Source: an uncultured Ignavibacteriaceae bacterium (GTDB taxonomy: Bacteria > Bacteroidota > Ignavibacteria > Ignavibacteriales > Ignavibacteriaceae). From it: a stretch of DNA of 64,000 nucleotides. This document shows, piece after piece, positions 27,632 to 55,769 of this stretch (the stretch's first letter is position 1; every line of letters begins with the position of its first letter). Location of the stretch: the NCBI GenBank assembly GCA_964536015.1, contig CAZHVS010000012.1:29434-93433 (forward strand), in the 5' to 3' direction. Both the position numbers and the translations under genes were made by a program. The notes beneath the pieces are model-generated. The model was given only the letters and a program-made list of their open reading frames with translations. It searched no databases and was not told where the DNA came from.

Positions 27632-27669
27632 AAACGATTCGATACATAACGAAATAGAAAGAGGTCAGA

Positions 27670-28089: not shown

Positions 28090-28109
28090 AATTTAGAAAG
28101 GATAAGACT

Positions 28110-28361
28110 ATGTTGAAAATTAAAGTTCTTGGCTCGGGTTGTGCAAACTGTATAAATCTTGAAAAGCTATGCAGAGAAGTTGTCACCGAAAACAGTATTG
28201 ATGCAGAAATAGAAAAGGTAACTGATTTTAATGAAATTATGAACTATGGAATAATGATGACCCCAGGGTTGGTTGTAAATGAAAGAGTAATTCATAGTGG
28301 TAAATTGCCTACAAAATCAACTTTAACTCAGTGGCTAATTAATGAACTGGCAAAAGACTAA
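28110..28361 (+). CDS. small thioredoxin-fold 'redox-active disulfide protein 2'-type protein
   Basis: 83 aa. MLKIKVLGSGCANCINLEKL contains the CxxC. It is a paralog of 34129..34368. Confidence 0.8.
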   Translation: MLKIKVLGSGCANCINLEKLCREVVTENSIDAEIEKVTDFNEIMNYGIMMTPGLVVNERVIHSGKLPTKSTLTQWLINELAKD

Positions 28362-28392
28362 TTATTTAGTTCAAACAATAGGAGAAAATAAA

Positions 28393-29470: not shown

Positions 29471-29478
29471 GGATTTAA

Positions 29479-30246: not shown

Positions 30247-30251
30247 AAACC

Positions 30252-31292: not shown

Positions 31293-31317
31293 AATTTATT
31301 AATATGCTGGGTTAAGA

Positions 31318-32127: not shown

Positions 32128-32135
32128 ATTTTATT

Positions 32136-33440
32136 ATGAACTGGAAAGAACAATATAAATCATTTTTGTGGGTATCAGGATTTTTTCTGCTTGCATACTT
32201 TATGCCCATTGAAACAGAAAAATTTAAAAATGCAATTATTGATGCTTTTACACTTGCAAAATGGTATGCACAAGAACATGTTTTACTTTGCCTTGTACCT
32301 GCTTTTTTTATCGCTGGTACGATTGCAGTGTTTATAAGTCAGGCTGCTGTTATAAAATATCTTGGTGGAAAAGCAAAAAAATGGGTTGCATATACAGTGG
32401 CTGCAACAAGCGGGACAATTTTAGCTGTTTGTTCCTGTACTGTTTTACCATTGTTTTCATCAATACATAAAAGAGGAGCTGGACTGGGTCCGGCAATAGC
32501 ATTTCTTTATTCGGGTCCGGCAATAAATATTCTTGCTATAATTTTAACAGCAAGAATACTTGGATTTGAACTTGGTATTGCCCGCGTTATCGGAGCCGTT
32601 TCGTTCAGTGTTATAATTGGATTAGTCATGTCTTTCATTTACCGAAAAGAAGAAAAAGAAAGAAACGGCAACAACACCGTTGTTCCAGAGATAGAAGAAT
32701 CCAGACCTATCTGGCAAACAACTCTTCACTTCTTTATTCTTGTTGCAATACTTGTATTTGTCAACTGGGGAAAACCTTCAAATGAAACCGAAGGTTTCTG
32801 GTATTTTATGTTTGCAAACAAATGGTTTATAACATCCATCTTTGGTGCAGGATTCGCATTCTCTTTAATATACATAATAAAAGTTAAAAAACTCTTTGTT
32901 GTTTTAGGAACCGCCTCTGTTATTATTTCGGCTTATTTCTTTTACCACACCCCCACAATTCCTTTTGTTGTAGGTGTAATTACAACAACTATTGCGTTAA
33001 CTTTTAGTGATGATGAACCAAATCAATGGCTTGGTGAGACCTGGGGATTTGCAAAACAAATTATGCCTCTTCTCGGTGCGGGTGTTTTAGTTGCGGGATT
33101 TCTTCTCGGCTCAGCCGAAGGAAATGGAGGAATAATTCCAAAAGATTGGATTTATGCTCTTGTTGGAGGAAACTCTTTATTCTCTAATCTTTTTGCTTCA
33201 GTTACAGGGGCATTTATGTACTTTGCAACTTTAACTGAAATACCGATACTTCAAGGCTTGATAAAAAATGGAATGGGAAAAGGTCCGGCACTTGCTTTAC
33301 TTCTTGCTGGCCCGGCTTTATCACTACCAAATATGCTTGTAATCAGGAGCGTAATAGGTACACAGAAAACAGTTGTATATGTTTCCCTTGTAATAATAAT
33401 GGCTACAATAACAGGTATAATTTATGGTTGGATATTTTAA
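32136..33440 (+). CDS. UPF0718/DUF318-type permease (ArsP-like organoarsenical permease family)
   Basis: Polytopic membrane protein with the CSC motif (AVCSCTVLPLF) characteristic of this permease family. Located next to arsM. Confidence 0.65.
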   Translation: MNWKEQYKSFLWVSGFFLLAYFMPIETEKFKNAIIDAFTLAKWYAQEHVLLCLVPAFFIAGTIAVFISQAAVIKYLGGKAKKWVAYTVAATSGTILAVCSCTVLPLFSSIHKRGAGLGPAIAFLYSGPAINILAIILTARILGFELGIARVIGAVSFSVIIGLVMSFIYRKEEKERNGNNTVVPEIEESRPIWQTTLHFFILVAILVFVNWGKPSNETEGFWYFMFANKWFITSIFGAGFAFSLIYIIKVKKLFVVLGTASVIISAYFFYHTPTIPFVVGVITTTIALTFSDDEPNQWLGETWGFAKQIMPLLGAGVLVAGFLLGSAEGNGGIIPKDWIYALVGGNSLFSNLFASVTGAFMYFATLTEIPILQGLIKNGMGKGPALALLLAGPALSLPNMLVIRSVIGTQKTVVYVSLVIIMATITGIIYGWIF

Positions 33441-36105: not shown

Positions 36106-37683
36106 ATGAAGAAAGTAATTGTAATCCTTGCTTTTATTGGATTGCTGGTTATTATCGCGATTGGAACTCTTTCACAAAAGGAAATTGATCCTTCCGGCAT
36201 AATGAAACTTAAAGAAAAATATTCCAAGAAGGAAAAACCCAAAGTTGATCATAGCAGATTTACTGTTCTGCAACAAAAATTTACTACACCACAACAAGTT
36301 ACCAAAGCCTGCGAATCATGCCATAATCTGACGGCTCACCAGGTCATGAATTCTAATCACTGGAACTGGGAACGTGAAGAATATGTACAAAACCGCGGAG
36401 TTATTTATCTTGGAAAAGGAAATGCCATAAATAATTTCTGTATTGGAACGCAGGGGAATGAAAAAAGTTGCGCCAAGTGTCATATTGGATTTGGTATGGA
36501 TAAAAACAAAACTGTGTTTACCGATTCATTGAATATTGATTGTCTTGTTTGTCACGATAACTCTGAAACATATGCTAAAGCAAGCGAACAAGGCGGAGCT
36601 CCGGAAATGACTCTTAACTTCAACCTTATCGCTCAGAGTGTTGGAAAGCCCAAAAGAAGCAACTGCGGAGTTTGTCATTTCTTTGGCGGCGGTGGTAATG
36701 GAGTTAAACACGGTGACCTTGAAATGACACAGTTTGAACCTTCAAAGGATATTGACATTCACATGGCTGTTGATGGAGCTAACTTAAAATGTATTGATTG
36801 CCACACAACTGAACAGCATAATATTTCTGGCAAATTATATTCGCTTTCATCAATGAATCACAATCGTAACAATTGCGAACAATGTCATACAGATGTTCCT
36901 CACAAAGATGACATTATTAATGAACATTCTTTAAAGGTCGCCTGTCAGACCTGCCATATACCAACCTATGCAAAAGGAAATTCAACAAAAATGTACTGGG
37001 ATTGGTCAACTGCAGGAAAATTAAAAGACGGTGAACCTTACGAAGAAGATGACAGCCTTGGAAACCACTCTTATTTATCAATTAAAGGTAGTTTTGTGTG
37101 GGCAAGAAATGTAAAGCCTGATTATATCTGGTTTAACGGAACAGCTTCTCATTATCTTGAAGGAGATAAAATACAGGACACCACCAAACCGCTTGTATTA
37201 AATCAATTACATGGTTCTTACAATGATGATGATTCTAAAATTATTCCCGTAAAAATTCACATAGCAAAGCAACCTTACGATCCTGTAAACAGAATTTTAA
37301 TTCAACCAAAATTATATTCAGATAAAGCTGGTGAGGGAGCCTTCTGGAAAGATTTTAACTGGTTGACCGCTGCTCAAGTTGGAATGAAAGATATAGGCTT
37401 ACCCTTCAGTGGAAAAATTTCTTTTATAAAAACTGAAATGTACTGGCCACTAAATCATATGGTTGCAAGTAAAGAAAACACTGTCCAATGCAACGAATGT
37501 CACACGCACGAAAATTCACGCCTTGCAGGTTTAAATGATTTTTATTTGCCCGGCAGAGATTATTCTTCTCTGGTCGATTCAGGAGGAAAGTGGCTGTTGA
37601 TTTTAACTTTAATCGGAATATTTATTCACGCTTCTATACGGTTTTATTCTTACAGAAAAATTAAAAATGGAGCATCAAAATGA
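36106..37683 (+). CDS. octaheme c-type cytochrome, tetrathionate-reductase (Otr) family
   Basis: Eight CxxCH motifs (CESCH, CAKCH, CLVCH, CGVCH, CIDCH, CEQCH, CQTCH, CNECH) in 525 aa. N-terminal anchor/signal and an extra C-terminal TM helix. Confidence 0.7.
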   Translation: MKKVIVILAFIGLLVIIAIGTLSQKEIDPSGIMKLKEKYSKKEKPKVDHSRFTVLQQKFTTPQQVTKACESCHNLTAHQVMNSNHWNWEREEYVQNRGVIYLGKGNAINNFCIGTQGNEKSCAKCHIGFGMDKNKTVFTDSLNIDCLVCHDNSETYAKASEQGGAPEMTLNFNLIAQSVGKPKRSNCGVCHFFGGGGNGVKHGDLEMTQFEPSKDIDIHMAVDGANLKCIDCHTTEQHNISGKLYSLSSMNHNRNNCEQCHTDVPHKDDIINEHSLKVACQTCHIPTYAKGNSTKMYWDWSTAGKLKDGEPYEEDDSLGNHSYLSIKGSFVWARNVKPDYIWFNGTASHYLEGDKIQDTTKPLVLNQLHGSYNDDDSKIIPVKIHIAKQPYDPVNRILIQPKLYSDKAGEGAFWKDFNWLTAAQVGMKDIGLPFSGKISFIKTEMYWPLNHMVASKENTVQCNECHTHENSRLAGLNDFYLPGRDYSSLVDSGGKWLLILTLIGIFIHASIRFYSYRKIKNGASK

Positions 37684-38348
37684 GCAAGAAACAGGTTTAT
37701 ATATACAAAAGTTTTGAAAGGTTCTGGCACTGGATGCAGGCAATACTTATATTTTTTCTTGCTTTTACCGGTTTTGAAATTCATGGCACTTATACTTTTT
37801 TTGGTTATCGAGAAGCCGTCAGATACCATAATATCTCTGCATACTTACTAATTGCTTTAATTGTGTTTGCAATTTTCTGGCACTTAACTACAGGTGAATA
37901 CAAACAATATATTCCAACTTTCAAAAATATTAAAGCACAGCTTGATTATTATATATTCGGGATCTTCCGTAATACCCCGCACCCGACAAAAAAAACTGTA
38001 TTAAGTAAACTTAATCCATTACAAAAACTAACTTACTTTGGTTTGAAGATTCTGGTTATTCCTTTAAGTGTTACTTCTGGTTTACTTTATATGTTCTACC
38101 GCTATCCCAGCAAACAAGGAGTTGAAGCTATCAATATTCAATCGCTTGAAGTAATTGCTATATTTCACACTATTGCTGCAATTCTTCTTGTAATTTTTAT
38201 TGTAACACATCTTTACTTAATAACAACCGGAGAAAACTTAACATCAAACCTAAAAGCAATGTTAACCGGTTATGAAGAACTGGAAGATGAACATCATCAA
38301 GAAGAAAAAAATGATGACAAAAATTTATCAACACAAAATTCAGATTAG
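37680..38348 (+). CDS. membrane di-heme cytochrome b (PhsC / hydrogenase b-type cytochrome family)
   Basis: FERFWHWMQAILIFFLAFTGFEIHG start and four TM helices with conserved His. ATGA overlap with the octaheme gene. Confidence 0.7.
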   Translation: MSKKQVYIYKSFERFWHWMQAILIFFLAFTGFEIHGTYTFFGYREAVRYHNISAYLLIALIVFAIFWHLTTGEYKQYIPTFKNIKAQLDYYIFGIFRNTPHPTKKTVLSKLNPLQKLTYFGLKILVIPLSVTSGLLYMFYRYPSKQGVEAINIQSLEVIAIFHTIAAILLVIFIVTHLYLITTGENLTSNLKAMLTGYEELEDEHHQEEKNDDKNLSTQNSD

Positions 38349-38356
38349 AGGACTTT

Positions 38357-38875
38357 ATGCAAGATACTAAATATATGAATCCGTACCTAGCAGGAGTATT
38401 GCTTGGACTTTTACTTCTTGCAACAATATATATTACCGGCAGAGGTCTTGGTGCAAGCGGAGCAATCAAAAGTTATGCTGTAACTGTTGTTGAAAAAGTT
38501 GCACCAACACACGCTTCAGAAACAAAATTTTACCAAGAATATAGCAAAGAACATTCAGGCACAAGTCCATTAATGAACTGGCTTGTGTTTGAGGTTACAG
38601 GAGTTTTAATTGGTGCATTTTTGTCCGGACTAATATCAAACAGGTTGAACTTTAAGTTTGAAAAAGGTCCTCGTTCAACAACAAAGATTAGGGTTGCAGG
38701 AGCATTAATTGGCGGTTTGCTCTGGGGAATTGGTTCTCAACTTGGTCGTGGTTGTACAAGTGGCGCCGCATTAAGTGGACTGGCAGTAATGTCAACTGGT
38801 GGAATTATTACAATGTTTGCAATATTCGCCGGCGCTTATGTTTTCGCCTACTTTTTCAGAAAAATGTGGATTTAA
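38357..38875 (+). CDS. YeeE/YedE-family transporter, N-terminal half protein (second set)
   Basis: GRGCTSGAALSG motif and multi-TM layout. Confidence 0.75.
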   Translation: MQDTKYMNPYLAGVLLGLLLLATIYITGRGLGASGAIKSYAVTVVEKVAPTHASETKFYQEYSKEHSGTSPLMNWLVFEVTGVLIGAFLSGLISNRLNFKFEKGPRSTTKIRVAGALIGGLLWGIGSQLGRGCTSGAALSGLAVMSTGGIITMFAIFAGAYVFAYFFRKMWI

Positions 38876-38890
38876 TAAGGAGATTTTAAA

Positions 38891-40084
38891 ATGGGTCCTT
38901 TGGTTCCGGATATTATCAGCAACAATTTAAATTTTATTGTCGCATTAGTAATTGGAGTTTTGTTCGGTGCAATTTTAGAACAAGCCGGATTTTCAACTTC
39001 AAAAAAACTTGTAGGATTATTCTATGGCTACGATTTTACTGTGCTAAGAGTTTTCTTTACTGCAGGAATTGTTGCAATGATTGGTGTAATGATTTTTGCA
39101 CATTATGGATTGCTCGATATGAGTCTTATTTATATTAATCCAACATTCCTCTGGTCAGCAATTATTGGAGGAATAATTATGGGACTTGGATTTATACTTG
39201 GAGGATTTTGTCCCGGCACGAGTGTATGTGCTGCCGCTATTGGAAAAATTGATGCAATGTTATTTATAGTTGGTGCCTTCTTTGGTGTTTTAATTTTTGC
39301 AGAAGGTTATCCTGTTTTTGAGCCTTTATATAAAGCAGCAAACTTAGGAAGTCCAAGGCTTTTTGAAACACTTGGAATGTCACAAAATATTTTTGCATTT
39401 TTAATGGTTTCAATGGCTTTAACTGCTTTCTGGTTTACATCAATTATTGAAAACAAAGTTAATAAAGTAGATAAACCGACTATTCGCTTTACACCGTATT
39501 ACATCGGTTTGTCTGCAATTGGATTAATGCTTGTAATTTCTGCTTTTATTTTTCCAGAGAAGAAAGAGTCGCTTACACAATTGGTTGAAAACATCGATTT
39601 TGTTAAATCTTATCCTCTCGAAACAATGACAGTTGATGAATTTGCTTATCGTCTGATAGATGAAACTGATAATAAATTTCAGATAATTGACTTCAGACCT
39701 GAAAAAGAATTTTCAAAAGAGAGTTTGCCAAAATCCACTTTGTTCACTCTTGATAATCTGTTCGAAAAAGAGCCAAGTCAACTTTTAAGATTGAAGAAAA
39801 GAATAATCGTTTTTGTTGCTAACGATGAGTTAACTGAAAGAAAAATGGCAATTATTGCAAACGAGCTTGGTTATAAAAGGATTAAAATTCTTAAAGGTGG
39901 ACTAAATTCATTTAGAGAGCAAATATTAAATTATCAACCGATTGAAAACCCCAAAAATATTGATGAAGTTTATCAAAATCGTTTTCGTTCTAAGGCGAAA
40001 GTTGTTATTCCGGTCTTAATTCAAAACAATAAATCAACTGGACCAGTAAAGAAAGAACAAAAACGAGTAATAGGCGGATGTTAA
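38891..40084 (+). CDS. YeeE/YedE-family transporter C-terminal half fused to a rhodanese-like domain
   Basis: GGFCPGTS motif in the membrane part. The C-terminal ~130 aa (FQIIDFRPEKEF...IIVFVANDELTERKMAIIANELGYKRIKILKGGLNSF) is rhodanese-fold, and the loop position normally holding the active-site Cys reads VAND (apparently no Cys). Confidence 0.7.
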   Translation: MGPLVPDIISNNLNFIVALVIGVLFGAILEQAGFSTSKKLVGLFYGYDFTVLRVFFTAGIVAMIGVMIFAHYGLLDMSLIYINPTFLWSAIIGGIIMGLGFILGGFCPGTSVCAAAIGKIDAMLFIVGAFFGVLIFAEGYPVFEPLYKAANLGSPRLFETLGMSQNIFAFLMVSMALTAFWFTSIIENKVNKVDKPTIRFTPYYIGLSAIGLMLVISAFIFPEKKESLTQLVENIDFVKSYPLETMTVDEFAYRLIDETDNKFQIIDFRPEKEFSKESLPKSTLFTLDNLFEKEPSQLLRLKKRIIVFVANDELTERKMAIIANELGYKRIKILKGGLNSFREQILNYQPIENPKNIDEVYQNRFRSKAKVVIPVLIQNNKSTGPVKKEQKRVIGGC

Positions 40085-40089
40085 AATAA

Positions 40090-40116
40090 AAGAGCCGGTT
40101 CAAGCCGGCTTTTTTA
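40090..40116. terminator. bidirectional rho-independent terminator between convergent genes
   Basis: AAAAGAGCCGG-TTCAAG-CCGGCTTTTTT: a GC-rich stem flanked by an A-run and a T-run. Confidence 0.7.
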
Positions 40117-41853
40117 TTGCTTTACCGCAATTCCAAGTCTTTTCATTCTCCTCCATAAAGTTGAAGGATTTATTTTTAAATCTTTTGCAGATTTATTTCG
40201 GTTACCATTATTTTTTTCCAGGACAGATATTATCAAATCCCTTTCAGCATTCTTAAGACTATTTAGCTCTGTTGTTTTAACCTTTACATTTGTACTTGTT
40301 TTAGTTTCAAGCAATCTTTTGGGTAAGCATTCATTCTGAATAATTTCTCCTCCGCATAAAACAAAACAATGTTCAATCACATTCTCCAACTCTCTTATAT
40401 TTCCAGGCCAATCGTAACTCATTAATACATTAAAGGCAGATGAGGAAAATTGTCTTATTTTTTTATTAAACTTTTGATTAAAGAATTCTATAAAATGATT
40501 TATTATCAAAGGCAGATCATCCATTCTTTCTCTTAATGGCGGAAGATGAATGTTGATAACGTTAATTCTATAAAACAAATCTTCTCGAAACCTTCCAGAT
40601 GTTATTTCTTCTAAAAGATTTTTATTTGTAGCTGCAATAATTCTGGAATTAATTTTTATTATTTTGTTTCCGCCAACTCTTTCAAATTCCCGGGTTTCCA
40701 AAACTCTTAGTAGTTTTGTTTGAACTGGAATTGAAAGATCTCCAATTTCATCAAGGAATAGAGTCCCGCCTTGAGAAAGCTCAAATTTTCCAATTTTTGT
40801 TTTTATTGCTCCAGTGAAAGCTCCTTTTTCATGACCAAATAATTCGCTTTCAATAAGAGTTTCAACAAACGCGCTGCAATTGACTGCAATAAAAGGTTCT
40901 GTTTTTCTTGAGCTATTGAGATGAATAGCTCGAGCTGCTAATTCCTTTCCTGTCCCACTTTCTCCTGTAATTAAAACGGTACTATCGGTTTGAGAAACAC
41001 TTTCAAGAACAGAAATAATCTGTCTGATTTCCTTATTCCTTCCAACAATATTTTCATACTTAAAAAAGTCGTGAAGGTGTGCTGATAAATTTTTTAATTC
41101 GGAAATATCAAGAAATGTCTCTATTGCCCCTATCTTTTCATTTTTATTATTTGTCAGGATGTTTGAATTTACTTTTATCGGTACTTTTTTACCACTTTTA
41201 TGAATGATCTCTAATTCATTCCCCAACATTGCTTTTCCATTTTGAAGAGTATGTTCCATATGACAGCCATTTTGACACAATGCTGAATTGAATATTTCCC
41301 AGCATTTTTTTCCAACAGCCTCAGACTTTTTATAACCAGTTATTTTTTCTGCCGAATTATTAAATGATGTAATCACCCAATCATTGCTGATTGTAAAAGT
41401 TCCTTCTATGTTGCTGTTAAAAATTGCGTCAAGTTTATTTTTCTGATCAATTAACTCCATAGTTTTTAATTGAATTTCCTCAGCAAGAGAAAGCATTTCT
41501 CTGGTATCTCTAAACACAAACACTACACTAAGGACGTTATTCTCTCTTGTGATTGGAGAAAGTGATGCAAGAACATTTTTAATGTTTCTTTTTTTATCCG
41601 TAATATTAAACGAAAGGTTATTCAAAGACAGATTTTCTTCCAGCGATTTCCGAATTGTCTTTCTTTCTTCAAAATTTTTTAAAAATAGAAATTCAAATTT
41701 CTGTCCTATTACTTCATCTTCAGAAAACCCTGTTATCCTCGATGCTGCCTCATTAAAAACAATTATATTTTCATCTTTACCAATTACCACAATACCATCA
41801 GGGACAATCAATGATTCTCTATTTTTATCAATAATTTGTTGTACATCAGCCAT
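40114..41853 (-). CDS. sigma-54-dependent transcriptional activator with tandem PAS sensor domains
   Basis: Two PAS-like regions, an AAA+ core with GESGTGKE and the GAFTGA loop ([10 protein letters not shown]), and a C-terminal Fis-type HTH. I prefer the ATG at 41853 (MADVQQ); the ORF-track start at 41865 is TTG. Confidence 0.9.
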   Translation of the reverse strand: MADVQQIIDKNRESLIVPDGIVVIGKDENIIVFNEAASRITGFSEDEVIGQKFEFLFLKNFEERKTIRKSLEENLSLNNLSFNITDKKRNIKNVLASLSPITRENNVLSVVFVFRDTREMLSLAEEIQLKTMELIDQKNKLDAIFNSNIEGTFTISNDWVITSFNNSAEKITGYKKSEAVGKKCWEIFNSALCQNGCHMEHTLQNGKAMLGNELEIIHKSGKKVPIKVNSNILTNNKNEKIGAIETFLDISELKNLSAHLHDFFKYENIVGRNKEIRQIISVLESVSQTDSTVLITGESGTGKELAARAIHLNSSRKTEPFIAVNCSAFVETLIESELFGHEKGAFTGAIKTKIGKFELSQGGTLFLDEIGDLSIPVQTKLLRVLETREFERVGGNKIIKINSRIIAATNKNLLEEITSGRFREDLFYRINVINIHLPPLRERMDDLPLIINHFIEFFNQKFNKKIRQFSSSAFNVLMSYDWPGNIRELENVIEHCFVLCGGEIIQNECLPKRLLETKTSTNVKVKTTELNSLKNAERDLIISVLEKNNGNRNKSAKDLKINPSTLWRRMKRLGIAVKQ

Positions 41854-41870
41854 ATTGTTTTCCAAAAGAT

Positions 41871-41940
41871 ATATTGCAACAATACAAAGAATAGTGCATT
41901 AATGCAATCTTATTGCAATTATCAATGCATAATTGCAATC
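41871..41940. promoter_or_regulatory. cluster of short TGCA/TTGCAA-core palindromes (candidate regulator binding sites)
   Basis: ATTGCAAC (41873-80), TGCATTAATGCA (41895-906), ATTGCAAT (41912-19), ATGCAT (41925-30) and ATTGCAAT (41931-38), in the divergent intergenic region between the activator and the radical SAM gene. Confidence 0.35.
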
Positions 41941-42034
41941 AACCTAAGAAAATGGTCTTCATTTTGAACTGGAATAGCAGAATAGCTCTGGTATGAATTT
42001 AGAGTATTATTATTTTGTAAAATGAGCTGTAATA

Positions 42035-43066
42035 ATGAAAAATAGAATAAGCCACTGGTTAAGGAAAAAAGTAGAATTACTTTGTCTATATTTAGAAAAA
42101 AGCATTCTTTCAGACCCATCGCTTCGATGTAAAATAGTATATGGTCCCATTCGTTCAAGAAGGCTCGGTTTAGTACTTGGAGTTAACAATATAAAACCAA
42201 ATCTATGTTCGTATAATTGTATATATTGTCCGGGTGGTAAAACGACCTGTTGTTCTGTTTGTACGAGTAATTGTTTGTCCCCCTATGAATTATTCGTCTC
42301 TGTAAAAAAGAAGCTCGATGAAATAAACAAAAGCGGAAAAAAAATTGATTACATTTTGTTTGCCGGAAGCGGTGAACCAGCACTTGACACAAGTCTTTCT
42401 CAAGAAATTCAACTTCTCAGAGAATTTGACCACAAAATAGCTGTTTTTACTAATGCATCGTTATTGTGGAATGAAAACATACAGGAAAATTTATTATATG
42501 CCGATTATATATCAGTTAAAATTGATACTGTAAACGAAAATACCTGGTTAAAAATTAATAGACCGCACGAAAGATTAAACTACGATTTAATTCTGAATGG
42601 CATAAAACAATTTTCTAAAAAATTTAAAGGAACATTAACTACTGCTACGACCTTACTTAAGGACATAAATGATAACGAGGAAGAAGTAATTCAACTTGCA
42701 AAATTTTTAAATTCAATAAAAATTAAAACCGCTTATTTTTTGACTCCAATTTATCCCCCGGCTGAAGATTACGCTATAAGTCCCGAGGAAGAAACTCTTG
42801 AAAAGTTATCACAAATAATTACAGCTAACATTCATAACTCGTGTAAACTTTGTTGCCCGGACAAAGAAGAGTTTTTTATTACAAATGATTTCGAAAATGA
42901 ACTAATCGGACTACTAAAAGTTCACCCGGTAGACAAAGACTCGGTAACGGCATTTGCAAATGCTAACAATAAAATTGAAAATTTAAGAGAAATGATTTCA
43001 AATAATCTAATTGGCGAACAGATTTTTTCGAGTAAGAAATATTTTGTAAAAACTGAAACAAAATAG
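42035..43066 (+). CDS. radical SAM protein
   Basis: IVYGPIRSRRLGLVLGVNNIKPNLCSYNCIYCPGG carries the CxxxCxxC cluster motif, preceded by the YGP..SRRLG..LG signature shared by a set of uncharacterised radical SAM enzymes. Confidence 0.8.
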   Translation: MKNRISHWLRKKVELLCLYLEKSILSDPSLRCKIVYGPIRSRRLGLVLGVNNIKPNLCSYNCIYCPGGKTTCCSVCTSNCLSPYELFVSVKKKLDEINKSGKKIDYILFAGSGEPALDTSLSQEIQLLREFDHKIAVFTNASLLWNENIQENLLYADYISVKIDTVNENTWLKINRPHERLNYDLILNGIKQFSKKFKGTLTTATTLLKDINDNEEEVIQLAKFLNSIKIKTAYFLTPIYPPAEDYAISPEEETLEKLSQIITANIHNSCKLCCPDKEEFFITNDFENELIGLLKVHPVDKDSVTAFANANNKIENLREMISNNLIGEQIFSSKKYFVKTETK

Positions 43067-43075
43067 GAAATCCAA

Positions 43076-43522
43076 ATGAAAGAAAAAGTTAAAATAGGAA
43101 TAATTATCTGTGATAGATATAAAAGTTGTGCGGGTGGAAAGTGTTTCAGAGCTATTAGAGAGAGAGTCGGTGGTTTTGATATTTATCGAGATAAAGATGT
43201 TGAACTTATCGGATACACAAGTTGCGGCGGATGTCCCGGTGGAAATATTGAATATGCGCCTGAAGAATTGAAAAAAAATGGTGTAGAAATAATTCATTTT
43301 GCAACTGGAATGGTAGTAGGTTATCCACCCTGTCCTTATATAAAAGACTTCAAAAATTTTATTGAAACAAAATATGGACTAAACGTGGTTGTGGGGACAC
43401 ATCCTATTCCAGAAAAATATTATCGCACGCATAAAAAATTACAGACATGGAAAGCGGATGAATGGGATGAATTATTAAAACCAACATTAAAAGATGAAGA
43501 AATAAGATTAGCATATGATTGA
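43076..43522 (+). CDS. CGGC-domain protein
   Basis: IGIIICDRYKSCAGGKCFRAI...GYTSCGGCPGG...PPCPY matches the Cys pattern of the CGGC domain. Confidence 0.75.
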   Translation: MKEKVKIGIIICDRYKSCAGGKCFRAIRERVGGFDIYRDKDVELIGYTSCGGCPGGNIEYAPEELKKNGVEIIHFATGMVVGYPPCPYIKDFKNFIETKYGLNVVVGTHPIPEKYYRTHKKLQTWKADEWDELLKPTLKDEEIRLAYD

Positions 43523-43570
43523 TTTTTAAGAATTAAGAAATAATAATAAAATTATACAAAGGAGCAAATT

Positions 43571-43819
43571 ATGCCAAATTTAGATAGAACAGGTCCTTTA
43601 GGACAAGGAGCAATGACAGGTGGAAGAAGAGGTAGTTGCCGTACAAATCGAACAGAACAAAGCAGCAATAATTCAGATGCCTCTCGTGAAATAACTCAAA
43701 ATATTAAAAGTAACGAAGTTGGACTAGGATTGCAGAATGGAAAAGGTCGCGCCCATAGATTCAGAGGAGGAGATGGAACAAACGGTAGAAGAAACAGAAG
43801 AGGATATGGTTGGAAATAA
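43571..43819 (+). CDS. DUF5320-like small protein with Arg/Gly-rich tail
   Basis: The N-terminus MPNLDRTGPLGQGAMTGGRRGSC matches the MPxxDxTGPxGxGPMTGRxxGxC signature. The tail is RFRGGDGTNGRRNRRGYGWK. Confidence 0.65.
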   Translation: MPNLDRTGPLGQGAMTGGRRGSCRTNRTEQSSNNSDASREITQNIKSNEVGLGLQNGKGRAHRFRGGDGTNGRRNRRGYGWK

Positions 43820-43910
43820 TTAGTAATAAAAAGCTAAAATAAGAATTAATAAAAAATCTCTTTAACTAGTGAAAAAATATTTATAAAGAAATATAGAAGG
43901 AACAATAAAA

Positions 43911-44291
43911 ATGAATTACAGAATTGCAATTGCAATTGAAGAAAATGGTATTGAAGAAAGAGTTGCCGAACATTTTGGAAGATGTTCCAAATTTAATGTT
44001 TGTGAACTTGATGAAAATAAAAATGTAATAAAGACAGAAACGTTTTTTAACCCTCTTGCAGGAGAGCATGGAGGATCTTGTCAGCTCCCGGGTTATGTAA
44101 AACAATACAATGTACAAACAATTATTGCAGGAGGCATGGGACAGAAAGCTGTATCTAATTTTTTATCATTTGGAATAGATGTTATTACAGCTCCTGGACT
44201 ATTATATAAAGATGCGTTAGATCAATTTCTTCTTGGCAAGTTATCTGGTTATGAATCTTGTTCGCATGGACATTCGCACAATTGTAATTAG
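43911..44291 (+). CDS. NifB/NifX-family (dinitrogenase FeMo-cofactor-binding domain) protein
   Basis: MNYRIAIAIEENG...VAEHFGRCSKFNVCELDE...IIAGGMGQKA is the typical fold signature. His/Cys-rich tail CSHGHSHNCN. Confidence 0.8.
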   Translation: MNYRIAIAIEENGIEERVAEHFGRCSKFNVCELDENKNVIKTETFFNPLAGEHGGSCQLPGYVKQYNVQTIIAGGMGQKAVSNFLSFGIDVITAPGLLYKDALDQFLLGKLSGYESCSHGHSHNCN

Positions 44292-44305
44292 AGCAAGGTA
44301 CAAAC

Positions 44306-45172
44306 ATCAATATTTCAATTGCATCAGGGAAGGGCGGAACTGGTAAGACTACAGTTGCTGTAAGCCTGGCTTCAATTATTCAGGACAGCATTTATATTGA
44401 TTGTGATGTAGAGGAGCCAAATGGGCATATTCTTCTAAAACCGAATTTCGACGAAGAAATTTTTTCACAAAAAATGCTGCCCAAAATAGATTACAACAAA
44501 TGCAATTTTTGTAATAAATGTGTATCCGTTTGCGAATTTCATGCTCTTTTTAATTTGAAGGATGAAATTATTCTTTTTAATGAATTATGTCACGGATGCG
44601 GTGCGTGCACATATTTTTGTCCACATAAAGCAATTACCGAAAAACCCAAAACAATTGGCTATGTTCGCAAAGGATTTTCTTCAATAAACAAGATTCAATT
44701 TGTCGATGGACTTTTGAATGTTGGAGAAGCGACTGTAACTCCATTAATTAAAGATGTTAAATCAAATATCAATAAGAATAAAATAAATATTATTGATTCA
44801 CCTCCGGGAACTTCTTGTTCAATGGTTGAAGCAGTAAGGAATTCAGATTATTGTATTCTTGTTACCGAATCAACTCCCTTTGGTTTGCACGATTTAAAAC
44901 TTGCTGTTGATGTATTAAGAATTCTAAAAATTCCATTCGGAGTTATAATTAATAAATATGAAAAAGGGTTTGTAAATTTGGAACAATATCTTTTCTCAGA
45001 AAAAATAAATATCCTTTTAAAAATTCCCTATGATAAACAAATTGCTGTTGAATATTCTAATGGAAAAATTCCCGTCCTGGTTTCGGAAAACCTATTTAAT
45101 GTTTTTAATGAAATGAAAGAAGAATTGTTTTCTATAATTCTAACAAGTAAAACAAGTCACGATGGGAAATAA
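44306..45172 (+). CDS. MinD/Mrp-like P-loop ATPase with 2x[4Fe-4S] ferredoxin insert; no canonical start codon upstream of the Walker A
   Basis: The ORF track begins at ATG 44474, but the same frame is open from 44288 and encodes ..NINISIASGKGGTGKTTVAVSLA.. (Walker A at 44327-44353). Ferredoxin motifs are CNFCNKCVSVC and CHGCGACTYFCP. The proposed start at ATC 44306 (AAGG 7 nt upstream) or ATT 44312 is an inference. Confidence 0.6.
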   Translation: MNISIASGKGGTGKTTVAVSLASIIQDSIYIDCDVEEPNGHILLKPNFDEEIFSQKMLPKIDYNKCNFCNKCVSVCEFHALFNLKDEIILFNELCHGCGACTYFCPHKAITEKPKTIGYVRKGFSSINKIQFVDGLLNVGEATVTPLIKDVKSNINKNKINIIDSPPGTSCSMVEAVRNSDYCILVTESTPFGLHDLKLAVDVLRILKIPFGVIINKYEKGFVNLEQYLFSEKINILLKIPYDKQIAVEYSNGKIPVLVSENLFNVFNEMKEELFSIILTSKTSHDGK

Positions 45173-46049
45173 ATATCATCAAATAGTTATATTAAGCGGT
45201 AAAGGGGGAACAGGCAAAACAACGTTTACTGCATCGTTTGCTAAACTGTTGCAAAACAAAACCGTTATTGATTGTGATGTAGATGCGGCTAATTTGCATT
45301 TGCTACTTAATCCTACTATAACTGATGAGTTTACGTTTGTTGGTGGACGCAAAGCATTAATAGATTTAAGCAATTGTAATAAGTGTGGATTATGTGAAGA
45401 ACTTTGTCGTTTTGATGCAATTAAAAATTTCTTTATTGATCCGATCAGCTGTGAGGGTTGTGGCTTATGTGTTAAAGCTTGTCCTTCATCCGCAATATCT
45501 TTTTTACCCAATACTTCCGGTAAATACTTTAAATGCAAAACAGAAGACGATTCTCTTTTCTATTATGCGCGGCTAAATCCCGGAGAAGGCAATTCAGGTA
45601 AACTTGTAAGTGAAATAAAAAAAGAAGCTGTTAAAAATCTTTCTAAAAACACAGAGTGGCTTATTATCGATGGACCTCCCGGCATAGGCTGCCCTGTAAA
45701 TGCAAGTCTCTCGGGTTCGGACTTTGTTTTACTAATAACTGAACCAACTCTTTCAGCTTTACACGACTTAAAAAGATTAATTGCTCTTATAACAAACTTA
45801 AAATATAAACATGGTCTTGTTATAAATAAATTTGATTTAAATGAACATATTACTGAAGAAATAATTAATTATACAAAGAAAATTCATACACCAATCATGG
45901 GTATGTTAGAATTCAATCCGGATTTTGCTTATGCTCTTCTTTCGGGCAAAACAATAATTGAATATAATTCAGAAATCAAAAAACAAATTCAAAATATTCT
46001 TAATAAAATAATTTTTTTTGTACAACACATAAATGGAGATGAATTATGA
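45162..46049 (+). CDS. MinD/Mrp-like P-loop ATPase with 2x[4Fe-4S] ferredoxin insert (second copy)
   Basis: Walker A is ILSGKGGTGKTT. Ferredoxin motifs are CNKCGLCEELC and CEGCGLCVKACP. Overlaps the preceding gene by 11 nt. Confidence 0.85.
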   Translation: MGNKYHQIVILSGKGGTGKTTFTASFAKLLQNKTVIDCDVDAANLHLLLNPTITDEFTFVGGRKALIDLSNCNKCGLCEELCRFDAIKNFFIDPISCEGCGLCVKACPSSAISFLPNTSGKYFKCKTEDDSLFYYARLNPGEGNSGKLVSEIKKEAVKNLSKNTEWLIIDGPPGIGCPVNASLSGSDFVLLITEPTLSALHDLKRLIALITNLKYKHGLVINKFDLNEHITEEIINYTKKIHTPIMGMLEFNPDFAYALLSGKTIIEYNSEIKKQIQNILNKIIFFVQHINGDEL

Positions 46050-46381
46050 AAATTGCTGTAACATCAACAGGAGGCTCTATGGAAGCTCTTATGAGTGAAC
46101 AATTTGGACGCTGTCAATATTTTTTAATAGTGGATCCCGATACTATGAAATTTGAAACCCTATCAAATCTTGGCGAACAAATGCAAAGCGGTGCCGGACT
46201 TAAAGCTGCTGAGTTAATAATTAACAGGGGCGCTAAAGTTCTTCTTACCGGTCACGTTGGCGATAAAGCCGAAGAAGCTCTCAAACGAGGTGGGATAAAA
46301 ATCGTTGATGGATATAAAGGTAACATAAAAGTTCGTGAGGCAATTAATGATTTTTTATCACAACACAAAGAAGAGAAATAA
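46046..46381 (+). CDS. NifB/NifX-family (FeMo-cofactor-binding domain) protein (second copy)
   Basis: MKIAVTSTGGSMEALMSEQFGRCQYFLIVD...LLTGHVGDKA. ATGA overlap with the preceding ATPase gene. Confidence 0.8.
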   Translation: MKIAVTSTGGSMEALMSEQFGRCQYFLIVDPDTMKFETLSNLGEQMQSGAGLKAAELIINRGAKVLLTGHVGDKAEEALKRGGIKIVDGYKGNIKVREAINDFLSQHKEEK

Positions 46382-46927
46382 ATGTACGTTCCAACAAAAA
46401 TATTTTTTACAAAAGGTGTAGGCAGACATAAAGATTATCTTAGTTCCTTTGAAGCCGCTTTAAGAAACGCCGGTATTGAAATGTGCAATTTGGTCATGGT
46501 CAGTAGCATTTTTCCTCCGGGCTGCAAAATAATTCCTAAACAGAAGGGTTTAAAAAAGATTGATCCGGGTCAAATAACTTTTGCTGTTATGGCAAGGAAT
46601 TCAACTAATGAACCAAACCGTTTAATTGCTGCATCTGTTGGGGTTGCAATTCCGGCGAACGGCAAGCATTATGGCTATCTTTCCGAATATCACCCATTTG
46701 GTGTAAAAGAAAAAATCGCCGGAGATTATGCAGAAGATCTGGCAGCACAAATGCTTGCAACAACTTTAGGTGTTGAATTTGATTCACAAACGGATTGGAA
46801 TGAAAGAGAACAGGTATTCAAGATGTCAGGAAAAATTGTTAAAACCTTTAATATTACGCAATCTGCAGAGGGAGATAAAACAGGTATGTGGACAACTGTT
46901 CTTTCAGCCGCTATTCTGTTACCATAA
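46382..46927 (+). CDS. pdaD: pyruvoyl-dependent arginine decarboxylase
   Basis: [40 protein letters not shown] is the conserved self-processing region of PvlArgDC. The start codon directly abuts the preceding stop. Confidence 0.85.
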
Positions 46928-46932
46928 TAATT

Positions 46933-47343
46933 ATGAATATTGATTTATCTAAAATTATAATTGAAACAAATATTGAAATAAATGCTTACGATATTGATAT
47001 TGCCGGGCACGTTAACAATATTGTCTTTATAAGATGGTTAGAAGATTTACGAAATAAATTATTTTCTGCAATTTGTCCATTGGAGAAATTATTGGAAAAT
47101 AATTTTTATCTTGTCGTAATTTCAACCGAGGTTAAATATAAAAAACAAGTCCGGTTGTTTGATAAACCACACGGCATTATGTATCTAGAAAATGTTTCAC
47201 ATGGTGTATTTGTTTTTAAGGCACAGATAGTCCTAAAAAATAAAATTATTTTTGAAGCAACTCAAAGAGGCGTTTTAATGAATCTATGTTCGGGGACAAT
47301 GTATTCAGGAAAAATAAGCGATTTCATTTCGAGTATTAAATAA
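46933..47343 (+). CDS. hotdog-fold acyl-CoA thioesterase (4HBT/YbgC-like)
   Basis: INAYDIDIAGHVNNIVFIRWLEDLR matches the 4HBT catalytic region (D..GHV.N..Y). I prefer the ATG at 46933 over the ORF-track start at 46888, which overlaps pdaD. Confidence 0.7.
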   Translation: MNIDLSKIIIETNIEINAYDIDIAGHVNNIVFIRWLEDLRNKLFSAICPLEKLLENNFYLVVISTEVKYKKQVRLFDKPHGIMYLENVSHGVFVFKAQIVLKNKIIFEATQRGVLMNLCSGTMYSGKISDFISSIK

Positions 47344-47417: not shown

Positions 47418-48257
47418 ATGGATATTGCATTAAAAATAGCAAAAGAGTCTTTTCAGATTACTTTGCTGGTTGCTGTAATGATGATTCTTGTTGACGTAAT
47501 TAATGTTGCTACAAAAAACAAACTCGAATCATTTTTTATTAATGCAAGAAAGTTTAAACAATATGTGCTTGCATCATTAATAGGAGCTGTCCCTGGTTGC
47601 ATTGGTGGATTTACAAATGTTTCTCTTTACATTCATGGCTTAATTAGCTTTGGAGCACTTACGGGTGCAATGGTTTCTGTTTCTGGCGATGAAGCTTTCG
47701 TAATGCTTGCAATGTTTCCTAAACAAGCTATCATCCTTTTTGCTGTTCTTTTTATGATTGGAATTTTTAGTGGATGGTTAATTGACATTATTATTAAAAA
47801 GTATAAAATTCCAGTTTGTGAAAATTGTAAAGAGATGGTTGTTCATCCAAAAGAAATAGGATTCAAACATTACCTTAAAGAACACATTTATGGACATATA
47901 ATTAAAAAGCATCTTTGGAAAACTGTTCTCTGGACTTTTGGAGCTTTAGCTGTTGTTGAGTTTGGACTCAAATATTTACACCTCGAAGAGTTTACTTCAC
48001 AATATAAAGTTGTATTTCTTCTCGTTAGTGCGTTGATTGGATTGATTCCTGAATCTGGTCCTCACCTGATATTTGTTACATTATTTGCACAAGGATTGAT
48101 TCCTTTTTCAGTATTGCTTACAAGCTCTATTGTTCAGGATGGACATGGAATGCTGCCAATGCTTTCATATTCCTTGAGAGATTATATTAAAATAAAATTA
48201 TTTAATCTTCTTATTGGAATATTTATTGGCTTATCTCTTTTACTTATGGGCTTATAA
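47418..48257 (+). CDS. polytopic membrane protein, possibly of the putative 10-TM heavy-metal exporter (ArsP_2-like) family
   Basis: About 8-10 TM helices and a central CENCKEM...H..E..H.H segment. The family assignment is from memory of overall features only. Confidence 0.35.
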   Translation: MDIALKIAKESFQITLLVAVMMILVDVINVATKNKLESFFINARKFKQYVLASLIGAVPGCIGGFTNVSLYIHGLISFGALTGAMVSVSGDEAFVMLAMFPKQAIILFAVLFMIGIFSGWLIDIIIKKYKIPVCENCKEMVVHPKEIGFKHYLKEHIYGHIIKKHLWKTVLWTFGALAVVEFGLKYLHLEEFTSQYKVVFLLVSALIGLIPESGPHLIFVTLFAQGLIPFSVLLTSSIVQDGHGMLPMLSYSLRDYIKIKLFNLLIGIFIGLSLLLMGL

Positions 48258-54263: not shown

Positions 54264-55769
54264 CTATGCTGGTTTATAATCGATTTTAAGTCTTTTAATT
54301 TTGCTTTGTAATGTTGTTGGTTTAATTTTAAGTAAAGATGCGGCCCCATCCTTACCATAGATTTTTCCATTTGCAAGGTTCAAAGCTTTTATAATTATTT
54401 CTTTTGTTTCATCGTCAAAAGATTTTATGAATGATTTTTTTTCTTCGCAATCAGATTTCTGTAAATTCTGTTTCTCAAATATTAAATGCGAAGGCTCAAT
54501 AATTCCGTCTTTACTTAAAATGGCCGCCCTCTCAAGTGTGTTCTGAAGTTCTCTTACATTTCCGTACCAGTTGTTTTCTGCAAGAATCCTTACTGCTTCT
54601 TTTGACAATAACAATTTTCTATCGCTAAATTTTTGTGTAAGTTTTTCAAGAAAATAATTTGCGAGCAAATAAATGTCTTCTTTTCTTTTTCTTAATGGCG
54701 GCAATTGAATTGGAAAAACATTTAAACGATAAAAAAGATCTTCACGAAATTTTCCCTCTTTAACTTTACTTTCAAGATCAACATTGGTTGCACAAATAAT
54801 TCTAACATTTGCGTGAATTGTTTTCTCGCTTCCCAATCTTTCAAATGTTCCTTCCTGTATTGCCCGTAAAAGCTTTGGTTGAATATCGATTGGCAAATCA
54901 CCTATTTCATCAAGAAATAAAGTTCCACCATCAGCAAGTTCAAATCTTCCCCGCCTTGCAGAAACCGCACCGGTAAAAGCTCCTTTTTCGTGGCCAAACA
55001 ATTCACTTTCTGCAAGATTATAATTAAGCGCTGAACAATTTAAAGTAATGAATGGCTTTTTATTTTTCTTTGAAAGCGAATGAATTGCTTTAGCTACCTG
55101 TTCTTTACCGGTTCCCGTTTCTCCTAAAATCATAACATGAGAATCTGTTGGAGCGACAAGTTTTATTTTTTCAATTATTTGAAGCCATGCGGGAGAGTTT
55201 CCTATCAATCCATCAACTACAGAAGAAATATCACCAATTAGTGAGGTTCTTTCATAAATCAATTTTTCTTTTTCATTTTGCAAAGAGTCGTTTGCAACAG
55301 CCTGAGCCAGTGCAAGAGCAATCAACTTAGTTAAAGAATTAGCAATAGTTACTTTTTGTGGAGTAAACATATCGCATTGCCTGTGATCGAGCGTCATCAG
55401 TCCTAGAGTTTCACCATCAATCCTTAGAGGTGCAAGCAAACAAGAGTGTCCTGTTGGTAAATCCATTATTCCTTCATAAGTATCGTGATGATCGGGATTG
55501 TTAGTTTCTTCAACCAGCTTTACTTTTCCTGTTTGTAATACTTCCTCAATTTCTGGATGTTGTTTTATTCTTAATCCAAAGTTCTTTAATTTTTCAGAAG
55601 CCAGCGGTCCATGTGCAAAACGAACTTTGAGGTTGTTATCACTTTCTCTACTTAATATTACTGCAAGCTCATAAGGAATTATTTCACTTATGGTATCAAG
55701 AACAATTTCCATTGTCTTTTGCGGAGAAAGCAAAAGTAAATCTTTCTGAATCAAATCATGTGTTGTCAT
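54264..55769 (-). CDS. sigma-54-dependent transcriptional activator with N-terminal GAF domain (NorR-like architecture)
   Basis: GAF-like N-terminus, an AAA+ core with GETGTGKE and GAFTGA, and a C-terminal HTH. 501 aa. Confidence 0.9.

Follow-up and report, generated by a model that had tools for sequence, protein, structure and literature searches.

The 64-kb stretch of DNA analysed here, called the window and used as the numbering for all coordinates, comes from an uncultured Ignavibacteriaceae bacterium (contig CAZHVS010000012.1). It carries seven co-directional genes on the + strand in one tight block, with inter-gene gaps of 9, 48, 91, 14, -11 and -4 nt along 42035-46381, divergent from a gene for a PAS/sigma-54 activator (Table 1). 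The block encodes a radical SAM (S-adenosylmethionine) protein, rSAM1, a CGGC-domain protein, a DUF5320 protein, a NifX-fold protein, NifX1, two MinD-type ATPases with ferredoxin motifs and a second NifX-fold protein of the ORP type. An earlier annotation made from the letters alone (the original prediction) had treated these genes as a seven-gene set. The tight co-directional block is real but it runs past 46381, and the gene for a pyruvoyl-dependent arginine decarboxylase (ArgDC) starts at the next base after the ORP stop codon. We propose that the locus is an Ignavibacterial Orp (orange protein) system, an explanation to which, taken as a whole, we give a probability of roughly 0.7.

Table 1. 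Features of the Orp-like locus, in window coordinates
Feature	Coordinates	Strand	Evidence
Sigma-54 enhancer-binding protein (OrpR-type)	40114-41865	-	Pfam Sigma54_activat 235.7 bits, two PAS, AAA_lid_14, HTH_8; GAFTGA
Candidate upstream activating sequence (UAS), TGCAAT/ATTGCA palindromic boxes	41895-41939		4-genome alignment
Sigma-54-type -24/-12-like element	41989-42004	+	Comparison with relatives
Radical SAM protein, COG0731-type (rSAM1)	42035-43066	+	Pfam Radical_SAM 50.4 bits
CGGC-domain Cys-rich protein	43076-43522	+	Pfam CGGC 103.2 bits
DUF5320 protein	43571-43819	+	Pfam 32.5 bits (cut-off 27)
NifX-fold protein 1 (NifX1)	43911-44291	+	Pfam Nitro_FeMo-Co 61.8 bits
MinD-type ATPase 1, type A, two 4Fe-4S motifs	44306-45172	+	P-loop in frame; predicted start aligned to relatives
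MinD-type ATPase 2, type B, two 4Fe-4S motifs	45162-46049	+	Pfam CbiA, ParA, Fer4
ORP, Orp8-type, NifX fold	46046-46381	+	Nitro_FeMo-Co 65.3 bits; best PDB match 2WFB
Pyruvoyl-dependent arginine decarboxylase (ArgDC)	46382-46927	+	PvlArgDC 210 bits
4HBT-type thioesterase	46933-47343	+	Conserved neighbour
ArsP_2-family permease (NCBIfam 'arsenic efflux protein' subfamily)	47418-48257	+	125 bits vs cut-off 100

Family calls were made at Pfam gathering thresholds, and the curated family level was judged by NCBIfam cut-offs. In hidden Markov model searches, every family named in the original prediction scored over its gathering threshold. No NCBIfam equivalog was found for any gene of the block, four of which match 'MrpORP' (NF041136) at the domain level only, with at most 59.6 bits against a cut-off of 450. 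The original prediction had also reported an absence of nitrogenase genes; Mrp and ATPase queries gave no further NifH-like P-loop protein in the 64 kb, NifDK not being searched explicitly. The locus sequence is identical in two public assemblies, a Joint Genome Institute (JGI) metagenome contig and Logan, which may represent one sample.

In Desulfovibrio vulgaris Hildenborough the Orp genes, DVU2103-DVU2109, form the divergent operons orp5-orp4-orp3 and orp7-orp8-orp9 around orpR (DVU2106) (PMC6345978, PMC8359166). Orp3 and Orp4 are paralogues with two 4Fe-4S ferredoxin motifs each, Orp8 is ORP, which holds a non-covalent S2MoS2CuS2MoS2 cluster, and Orp9 is MrpORP, an Fe-S carrier composed of Mrp/NBP35 and Di-Nase domains that loads the co-purifying Orp3-Orp4-Orp8 complex (PMC6345978). 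Our comparison was made through D. gigas ORP and the locus of Desulfovibrio sp. X2, rather than the D. vulgaris Hildenborough sequences. The X2 ORP is 74% identical to D. gigas ORP; its gene follows those for a PAS/sigma-54 activator and two small G/R-rich proteins and precedes those for ATPase A, ATPase B and a NifX-fold protein of 126 aa, in this order. The same Orp core was found in a Syntrophobacteraceae genome.

The window ORP (111 aa) has ORP of D. gigas (Megalodesulfovibrio gigas; 2WFB, 'putative uncharacterized protein ORP') as its best PDB match, with an E value of 1.7e-18 and 43% identity over 104 residues. In Desulfovibrio sp. X2 and the Syntrophobacteraceae genome two ATPase types are encoded beside ORP, and each window ATPase is the orthologue of one of them. 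For ATPase 1, identity to the proteins of these Desulfobacterota is 35-38% with type A and 24-25% with type B; for ATPase 2 it is 40-41% with type B and 28-33% with type A. Since each ATPase matches its own type better, the ATPase duplication is older than the split of these phyla. NifX1, whose best PDB match is TM1816 (1o13/1t3v, E 3e-13), shows 29% identity to the NifX-fold protein of 126 aa encoded after the two ATPases in Desulfovibrio sp. X2 (L003). The two proteins share an HFG(R/H)C motif, HFGRC in NifX1, and a Cys/His end, and NifX1 is probably of the Orp5 type. To judge from sequence, the locus is a variant of a known system, with Orp, described for D. vulgaris (Fievet 2011-2021, Pardoux 2019), as its core and regulator.

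The regulator was compared in the same way. The public gene caller starts the activator at ATG 41853 (579 aa), and its second PAS domain carries a C184-x8-C193-x3-C197 triad with a Glu at +2, in the segment KKC-W-E-IFNSAL-C-QNG-C. The spacing is equal to that of C52/E54/C61/C65 in D. vulgaris OrpR, a PAS-AAA+-HTH sigma-54 activator in which the triad binds a redox-sensing [4Fe-4S] cluster and whose operons go off as the redox potential rises (PMC8359166). IHF assists OrpR-dependent regulation (PMC3897727). The Cys triad is kept in 13 Orp-linked enhancer-binding protein (EBP) sequences, drawn from 12 loci in the Desulfobacterota, Planctomycetota, Verrucomicrobiota and Eisenbacteria, and is absent from four EBPs with other N-terminal domains in the same alignment. 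A second sigma-54 activator gene, with a GAF sensor domain, lies at 54264-55769 (- strand), divergent from a ferritin gene (55947 onward).

Between the activator and rSAM1 genes, TGCA, ATGCAAT, TGCAAT and TGCAA blocks are invariant at 41895-41939 in the window and three Ignavibacterial relatives. This candidate UAS includes the palindrome TGCAATCTTATTGCA, which has no second exact match in the 64 kb, and the region also holds a perfect 11-nt inverted repeat. A consensus search for canonical GG-N10-GC or TGGCAC-N5-TTGC in the 170-nt intergenic region gave no match, and the -24/-12-like element was located solely by comparison with relatives. In the window it reads TGGTATGAATTTAGAG (aligned over 41989-42005 as TGGTATGAATTTAGAGT), that is GG-N10-GA with the -12 C replaced by A, and the corresponding elements are TGGAACACAATTAGCAT in L088, TGGTAATATTACAGCAT in L089 and TGGTACATAAATAGTAA in Ignavibacterium album (L090). 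The distance from the end of the element to the ATG is 28-32 nt in 4/4 genomes. The -24 TGG and the -13 G are invariant in all four and the -12 C is found in two, positions -13/-12 being GT in Ignavibacterium album and GA in the window. An equivalent element, TGGCATGCTCCCTGCT, lies between activator and operon in Desulfovibrio sp. X2. The prediction of an OrpR-type sigma-54-dependent promoter with an unusual -12 position is reasonable but unproven. The D. vulgaris OrpR palindrome GGGCGYRTTTTGCGCCC was absent even from Desulfovibrio sp. X2 with up to three mismatches allowed, so that the UAS sequence is unusable as a criterion for Orp membership.

Both ATPases carry a GKGGTGKT Walker A motif and two CxxCxxCxxxC motifs, in agreement with the two paralogous MinD/Mrp ATPases originally described, except that the start of ATPase 1 is non-canonical. 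The ATPase 1 gene overlaps that of ATPase 2 by 11 nt, and the latter overlaps the ORP gene by 4 nt. The open reading frame (ORF) list and the public gene caller give ATPase 1 as 44474-45172, a protein of 232 aa without P-loop, because the stretch from the upstream stop (TAA, 44285-44287) to the P-loop has no ATG, GTG or TTG. From 44288 on the frame is open, and the P-loop ISIASGKGGTGKT is in frame upstream of the first ATG. In four relatives ATPase 1 starts with GTG or TTG followed by ATA-ATA-TCT-ATT-GCC, and the codon of the window that aligns with this start is ATC 44306, 7 nt after AAGG. We predict a near-cognate or coupled start at this ATC. A pseudogene was considered and rejected: the 288-codon frame is intact and the alignment-invariant columns are kept, the latter by definition, as the 12-sequence alignment (A1) includes ATPase 1.

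In ATPase 2, nine Cys are invariant (alignments A1/A5), eight of them in the ferredoxin motifs and the ninth, C177, in the DGPPGIGC switch II segment. Its equivalent in ATPase 1 is C171, in a DxPPGxxC segment. In dimeric ATPases of the MinD/NifH/Mrp class the switch II segment faces the partner subunit, and the ninth Cys could contribute to a dimer-interface site. The AlphaFold2 (AF2) model of ATPase 2, with a predicted local distance difference test (pLDDT) score of 90.6, has a MinD/ParA-class fold and matches MinD, FleN/FlhG, McdA, ATPase-type HypB, NifH/BchL, Cfd1 and ApbC with template-modelling (TM) scores of 0.5-0.6. The double-ferredoxin insert of about 60 residues after the Walker A region was present in none of the solved structures found.

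rSAM1 has a C58-x3-C62-x2-C65 motif preceded by YGPIRSRRLG, and is 56-70% identical to Ignavibacterial orthologues. It is lineage-specific and 39% identical over its full length to a paralogue, rSAM2, with which it shares a GP(V/I)xSRRLG...CSYxCxYC signature. rSAM2 is the best match for most radical SAM-like ORFs of other phyla (16/41 well-flanked loci), where its gene is often found directly after ATPase 2. The JGI family name, 'wyosine synthetase-like', is derived from COG0731. rSAM1 remained under every NCBIfam cut-off (viperin 42.5/180, W_rSAM_matur 41/380, MoaA 32/284, TYW1 24.8/318), and NifB was not among its NCBIfam matches. Its AF2 model (pLDDT 78) matched generic radical SAM cores only, NifB among many. 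Beyond the core motif, rSAM1 has a 33-aa N-terminal extension with an invariant Cys (C32), a CCxxCxxxC stretch and CC273-274, and these extra conserved cysteines suggest an auxiliary cluster. The CGGC gene adjoins or overlaps radical SAM, ATPase 1 or ORP genes in other loci. A sequence search of the PDB found no close solved relative of rSAM1 and no relative of the CGGC protein, and a literature search found no functional study of the CGGC domain or of DUF5320.

The window DUF5320 protein (82 aa, isoelectric point (pI) 11.7, with 16 Gly and 13 Arg) bears the signature GPxGxGxxTGxxxGxC at its N-terminus and ends in a cationic Gly/Arg tail. DUF5320 proteins share an N-terminus of the form MPx(L/F)(D/N)xTGPxGxGxxTGRxxGxC, followed by such a tail. 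In the census of 85 loci described below, the signature was found in 35, and ORP-type domains with GMGRG (GMGRGMGRG) tails in 14. Fusions of Nitro_FeMo-Co and DUF5320 scored above the DUF5320 gathering cut-off in 4/10 tested ORFs, from two Dehalococcoidia, one Acidobacteriota and one Paludibacteraceae locus (L028, L054, L067 and L085). A comparable architecture is known from Pyrococcus furiosus IssA, a thioferrate iron-sulfur storage protein with an IPR003731 domain and a cationic Gly-rich disordered tail that has a single Cys; the tail has been proposed to wrap anionic thioferrate (PMC5524996). IssA, ORP and MrpORP's Di-Nase domain hold metal-sulfur species on the same fold (PMC5524996, PMC6345978). 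We scored an IssA-type tail as pI >= 9 and >= 20% Gly in the last 40 residues of the polypeptide carrying IPR003731. Neither the window ORP (pI 6.7, tail-less) nor NifX1 (pI 5.7, with a His/Cys tail) has this architecture. The gene that directly precedes ORP in Desulfovibrio sp. X2 codes for a 112-aa protein rich in G/R and with Cys, and its position is that of orp7 (DVU2107) in D. vulgaris.

To define a conserved core, as the original prediction had suggested, a neighbourhood census was carried out. The ferredoxin-MinD ATPase family search gave 7,986/8,000 scored candidates at E <= 1e-10, and the ATPase occurs in at least 527 species-representative genomes. For 85 loci, from anaerobic Bacteria and Archaea of more than 10 phyla, six-frame ORFs were annotated by phmmer with the window proteins and a few extra queries; many contigs end within loci, and the counts are lower bounds. 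Among the 80 best loci, the Bacteria comprise Ignavibacteriota, Bacteroidota, Desulfobacterota, Chloroflexota, Planctomycetota, Omnitrophota, Clostridia, Verrucomicrobiota, Armatimonadota and several phyla with a single representative, and the Archaea comprise Bathyarchaeia, Methanocellaceae, Methanothrix and Altiarchaeota. ATPase 1 was adjacent to ATPase 2 in 81/85 loci and ORP/NifX-fold genes were present in 74. Lower counts were obtained for a Mrp-like P-loop gene (47/85), the DUF5320 signature or tail (43), NifU and DUF134 (27 each), COG0731-type radical SAM (21), the OrpR-type activator (13), CGGC (12) and the ArsP_2 permease (6). These counts define a core made of the ATPase pair and the NifX-fold proteins, the other members being recurrent accessories. 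The originally proposed combination of NifX-fold carriers, Fe-S P-loop ATPases and a redox-type PAS/sigma-54 activator is a single conserved functional neighbourhood.

Related Ignavibacteriota loci (L007, L087-L090) have a fuller order: activator (- strand), then rSAM1 - Mrp - [multihaem cytochrome] - CGGC - [rSAM2] - DUF5320 - NifX - NifX - ATPase1 - [peroxiredoxin] - ATPase2 - ORP - ArgDC - thioesterase - ArsP_2. The window has a shortened form of this arrangement. A stand-alone ParA/Mrp gene is present in L087-L089. In the 64 kb of the window no Mrp, MrpORP, rSAM2, NifU or DUF134 gene was found, the two ferredoxin-ATPases being the only Mrp-like ORFs. The peroxiredoxin (AhpC-TSA) gene lies between ATPase 1 and ATPase 2 in two relatives (L088 8272-8988; L089 8272-8988), and the window has a homologue at 56463-57167, 10 kb downstream. 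In the Syntrophobacteraceae locus L005 (3717-5463) a gene for MoaE, a subunit of molybdopterin synthase, overlaps the start of the OrpR-type activator gene, and NifU_N and DUF1847 genes precede ORP. We also searched 150 of the 372 unannotated same-strand ORFs of related loci L007-L089 against Pfam. The most frequent families in this neighbour sample were ARMT1-like/DUF89 phosphatase domains (9/150) and metallo-beta-lactamase-fold proteins (7/150); ZIP transporters, DUF364 ('heavy-metal chelation'), DUF169 and C_GCAxxG_C_C proteins also recurred.

Downstream of the block, ArgDC follows the last NifX/ORP gene in five related Ignavibacterial loci (L007, L087, L088, L089 and L090), and the order ArgDC - thioesterase - ArsP_2 after NifX/ORP genes was seen in all Ignavibacterial loci examined. 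No terminator is predicted on the + strand ahead of 47343, and ArgDC is probably in the same transcript as ORP. The ArsP_2 permease was found in Ignavibacterial L087-L090 and also in Methanocellaceae, Bacteroidales, Acidobacteriota and Desulfobacterales loci. By rough judgement, not a computed statistic, it is commoner in these neighbourhoods than expected by chance.

Upstream, a complete-looking ars island (27284-33440) encodes ArsR, a low-molecular-weight (LMW)-phosphatase-type ArsC, Acr3 (SBF family), an ArsM-like methyltransferase, an ArsP_1 permease, two YeeE-like half-proteins and an F420_oxidored-like protein. The region 36106-40084 encodes two cytochromes, a multihaem one (PF11783) and a cytochrome b, as well as two YeeE/YedE-type proteins, of which the second carries a rhodanese fusion. 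The multihaem cytochrome (36106-37683) is homologous, with 433 bits, to one inside the Orp-like cluster of L087 and L088. In four related Ignavibacterial loci the upstream flanks are unrelated to those of the window, and adjacency to the arsenic island is specific to this genome. The original prediction had placed the set inside an arsenic/chalcogen island: the ars genes upstream are real, but the link is weak in view of these flanks. As to a metalloid substrate, nothing in the 85 loci points there, the recurrent ArsP_2-family permease excepted.

A mechanism can be proposed that accommodates these elements. The OrpR-type activator would hold a redox-sensitive [4Fe-4S] cluster in its second PAS domain and, under reducing conditions, bind the TGCAAT boxes and drive the predicted sigma-54 promoter, which lies some 30 nt upstream of rSAM1. 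The genes rSAM-CGGC-DUF5320-NifX1-ATPase1-ATPase2-ORP would probably be transcribed as one operon, which probably continues into ArgDC and the thioesterase. The two MinD-type ATPases would form an ATP-dependent heterodimer with four [4Fe-4S] clusters, and by analogy with Orp3-Orp4-Orp8 of Desulfovibrio this heterodimer would bind ORP. Anionic metal-sulfur species may be held non-covalently by the NifX-fold proteins and stabilised electrostatically by the cationic DUF5320 protein, in the manner proposed for the IssA tail. The ATPase pair would carry out ATP-gated, electron-gated loading or release, and the radical SAM and CGGC proteins may act as maturation or modification factors. OrpR regulation, complex formation and the Fe-S content of the complex have been shown in Desulfovibrio by others (PMC8359166, PMC6345978). 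Beside the homology, gene order, conservation and motifs observed here, we infer the cargo, the direction of transfer and the roles of the radical SAM, CGGC and DUF5320 proteins.

A broader proposal, which we make tentatively and at odds well short of even, is that Orp-type clusters in general are an ancient apparatus of anaerobes that assembles, holds and releases anionic metal-sulfide species, either thioferrate-like Fe-S or thiometallates, and does not act in division. ORP/NifX-fold proteins and DUF5320 would represent a 'split IssA', the ferredoxin-MinD heterodimer a loader or unloader gated by ATP and redox state, the radical SAM (COG0731) and CGGC proteins unrecognised maturation factors, and ArsP_2 the membrane gate of the cargo. 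The recurrent Fe-S and cluster-handling partners (Mrp, NifU, radical SAM, CGGC) and the ORP-DUF5320 fusions that mirror IssA architecture are functional leads, on the basis of which we favour metal-sulfur trafficking or storage over cell division.

Several points weigh against our view of the locus. The published Orp hypothesis is a role in cell division, not cluster trafficking, and the cargo is known for no member outside Desulfovibrio. ATPase 1 lacks a canonical start codon and therefore expression of the set in the organism is not assured, and the -12 element of the window is degenerate, with GA in place of GC. As Mrp or MrpORP, NifU and DUF134 are missing from the 64 kb, an Fe-S donor would be encoded elsewhere. 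The cultured type strain Ignavibacterium album JCM 16511 (L090, CP003418 1236222-1257253) keeps the activator, rSAM1, CGGC, rSAM2, DUF5320, two NifX-fold genes, ArgDC, thioesterase and ArsP_2, and the ferredoxin-MinD ATPase pair and ORP are missing from its cluster. The half made of radical SAM, CGGC, DUF5320 and NifX may therefore be separable from the ATPase half. Finally, no Mo/W-specific family is found among the 25 most frequent Pfam families of the 150-ORF sample.

If the published view holds, the ATPase pair would be a cell-division or positioning device at poles or septa, its clusters acting as redox sensors only, as has been suggested for D. vulgaris. By fold and by sequence the ATPases are nearest to MinD, FleN, FlhG and McdA, the D. 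vulgaris orpR mutant is morphologically defective, a MinD-like C-terminal amphipathic helix has been reported for Orp3 and Orp4, and MrpORP is polar (PMC8359166, PMC6345978). The window ATPases, however, miss the NCBIfam MinD level widely (minD_arch 71 bits against a cut-off of 202; minD_bact 61 against 213). The C-terminal helix of ATPase 2 (residues 270-289) is modelled confidently by AF2, with pLDDT block means of 88-98, and in this model appears unlike the membrane-targeting sequence of MinD, a short tail helix after a disordered linker. No min partner gene is annotated near the cluster in the window, and no minC, minE or fts gene was seen in the window or the loci census. Among the sampled neighbours, Mrp, NifU, NifX-fold, radical SAM and Cys-rich proteins abound instead, and the pair spans Archaea and Bacteria, the division systems of which are unrelated. 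A division role for the pair thus appears unlikely to us.

Another reading takes the locus as a NifB/NifX/NifH-like cofactor pathway for one specific enzyme, for example of Mo or W, with the radical SAM protein in the role of NifB and the ATPase pair in that of NifH. In its favour, the parts are parallel (a radical SAM protein, carriers of the NifX fold and P-loop ATPases with Fe-S motifs), the fold matches include NifH, BchL and NifB, D. gigas ORP binds a Mo-Cu-S cluster (PMC6345978), MoaE overlaps the OrpR gene in one Syntrophobacteraceae locus, and rSAM1 has weak matches to the tungsten-cofactor radical SAM maturase and to MoaA. The scores of these matches are, however, far under their cut-offs (41 vs 380 and 32 vs 284), and a radical SAM gene was found in 21/85 loci only. 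The 25 top Pfam families of the neighbour sample include neither a conserved candidate client enzyme nor a family for Mo/W transport or cofactors. Rfam found zero families in the window, hence no Moco (molybdenum cofactor) or other riboswitch, and a paper on thiomolybdate (PMC11484787) does not concern these genes. Such a dedicated pathway is quite improbable.

Weakest is a metalloid-sulfur machine tied to the ars/YeeE/TehA island, which is very improbable. In its favour are the real ars genes (ArsR, ArsC, Acr3, ArsM-like and ArsP_1), the YeeE/rhodanese genes that adjoin the activator, and the ArsP_2 permease that comes after the cluster in the window and L087-L090 as well as in 4-5 more loci from other phyla. 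Against it, every related Ignavibacterial locus has different upstream flanks, and the characterised relatives bind Fe-S or Mo-Cu-S species. ArsP_2, a permease of putative specificity and the only ars family queried, was also the only ars gene noticed in the census loci, and no ars family is among the 25 most frequent Pfam families of the 150-ORF sample.

Once identified as Orp, the locus is no longer an apparent orphan but a homologue open to testing. The original prediction considered the function of such neighbourhoods to be unassigned; this no longer holds for the regulator, promoters, complex and MrpORP carrier of the Orp system, which have been studied experimentally (PMC8359166, PMC6345978, PMC3897727), and it still does for the physiological role. 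Among 'anaerobe-specific' gene sets that lack an assigned cellular function, Orp is one of the most widespread, and the wide census and the link between ORP-DUF5320 and IssA make the question of its function more testable. The OrpR Fe-S redox sensor, described from Deltaproteobacteria, is extended to Ignavibacteriota, Planctomycetota, Verrucomicrobiota and Eisenbacteria. If trafficking or storage of metal-sulfur species is confirmed, this would close a gap in the understanding of iron and sulfur management by strict anaerobes.

Compared with other known systems, the window ATPases have the GKGGTGKT motif and overall fold in common with the SIMIBI ATPases (MinD, FleN/FlhG, McdA, HypB-type, Mrp/NBP35/Cfd1 and NifH/BchL). 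The deviant Walker A is shared with Mrp/NBP35/ApbC, but the CXXC motif of these proteins is found in neither ATPase outside the ferredoxin motifs. With NifB, NifX and NafY the locus has in common a NifX fold as metal-sulfur cluster carrier and a radical SAM protein encoded alongside. It differs from nitrogenase assembly in that its radical SAM protein is COG0731-type, not NifB, in its distribution in non-diazotrophs and in having no nif context. In IssA the domain and the tail reside in one polypeptide, as they do in cis in many ORP proteins of Orp neighbourhoods. In the window, in contrast, the tail-like module is the separate 82-aa DUF5320 protein, beside a tail-less ORP and a NifX1 with a His/Cys tail. 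The likeness between the IssA tail and DUF5320 is one of composition and architecture, not of alignment.

The closest counterpart is the D. vulgaris Orp system, with which the window shares the MinD-type ATPase pair, ORP, a further NifX-fold protein, a PAS/AAA+/HTH sigma-54 activator that bears the Fe-S Cys triad and has its gene beside its targets, and the restriction to anaerobes. In the window, however, the genes form one predicted operon instead of two divergent ones, and the activator has an extra N-terminal PAS domain. No MrpORP gene is found in the 64 kb, Mrp being stand-alone in the relatives, and rSAM1 and CGGC genes are added. The candidate UAS consists of TGCAAT boxes where D. vulgaris has GGGCGYRTTTTGCGCCC, the -12 position is degenerate, and the locus ends in a conserved ArgDC-thioesterase-ArsP_2 tail.

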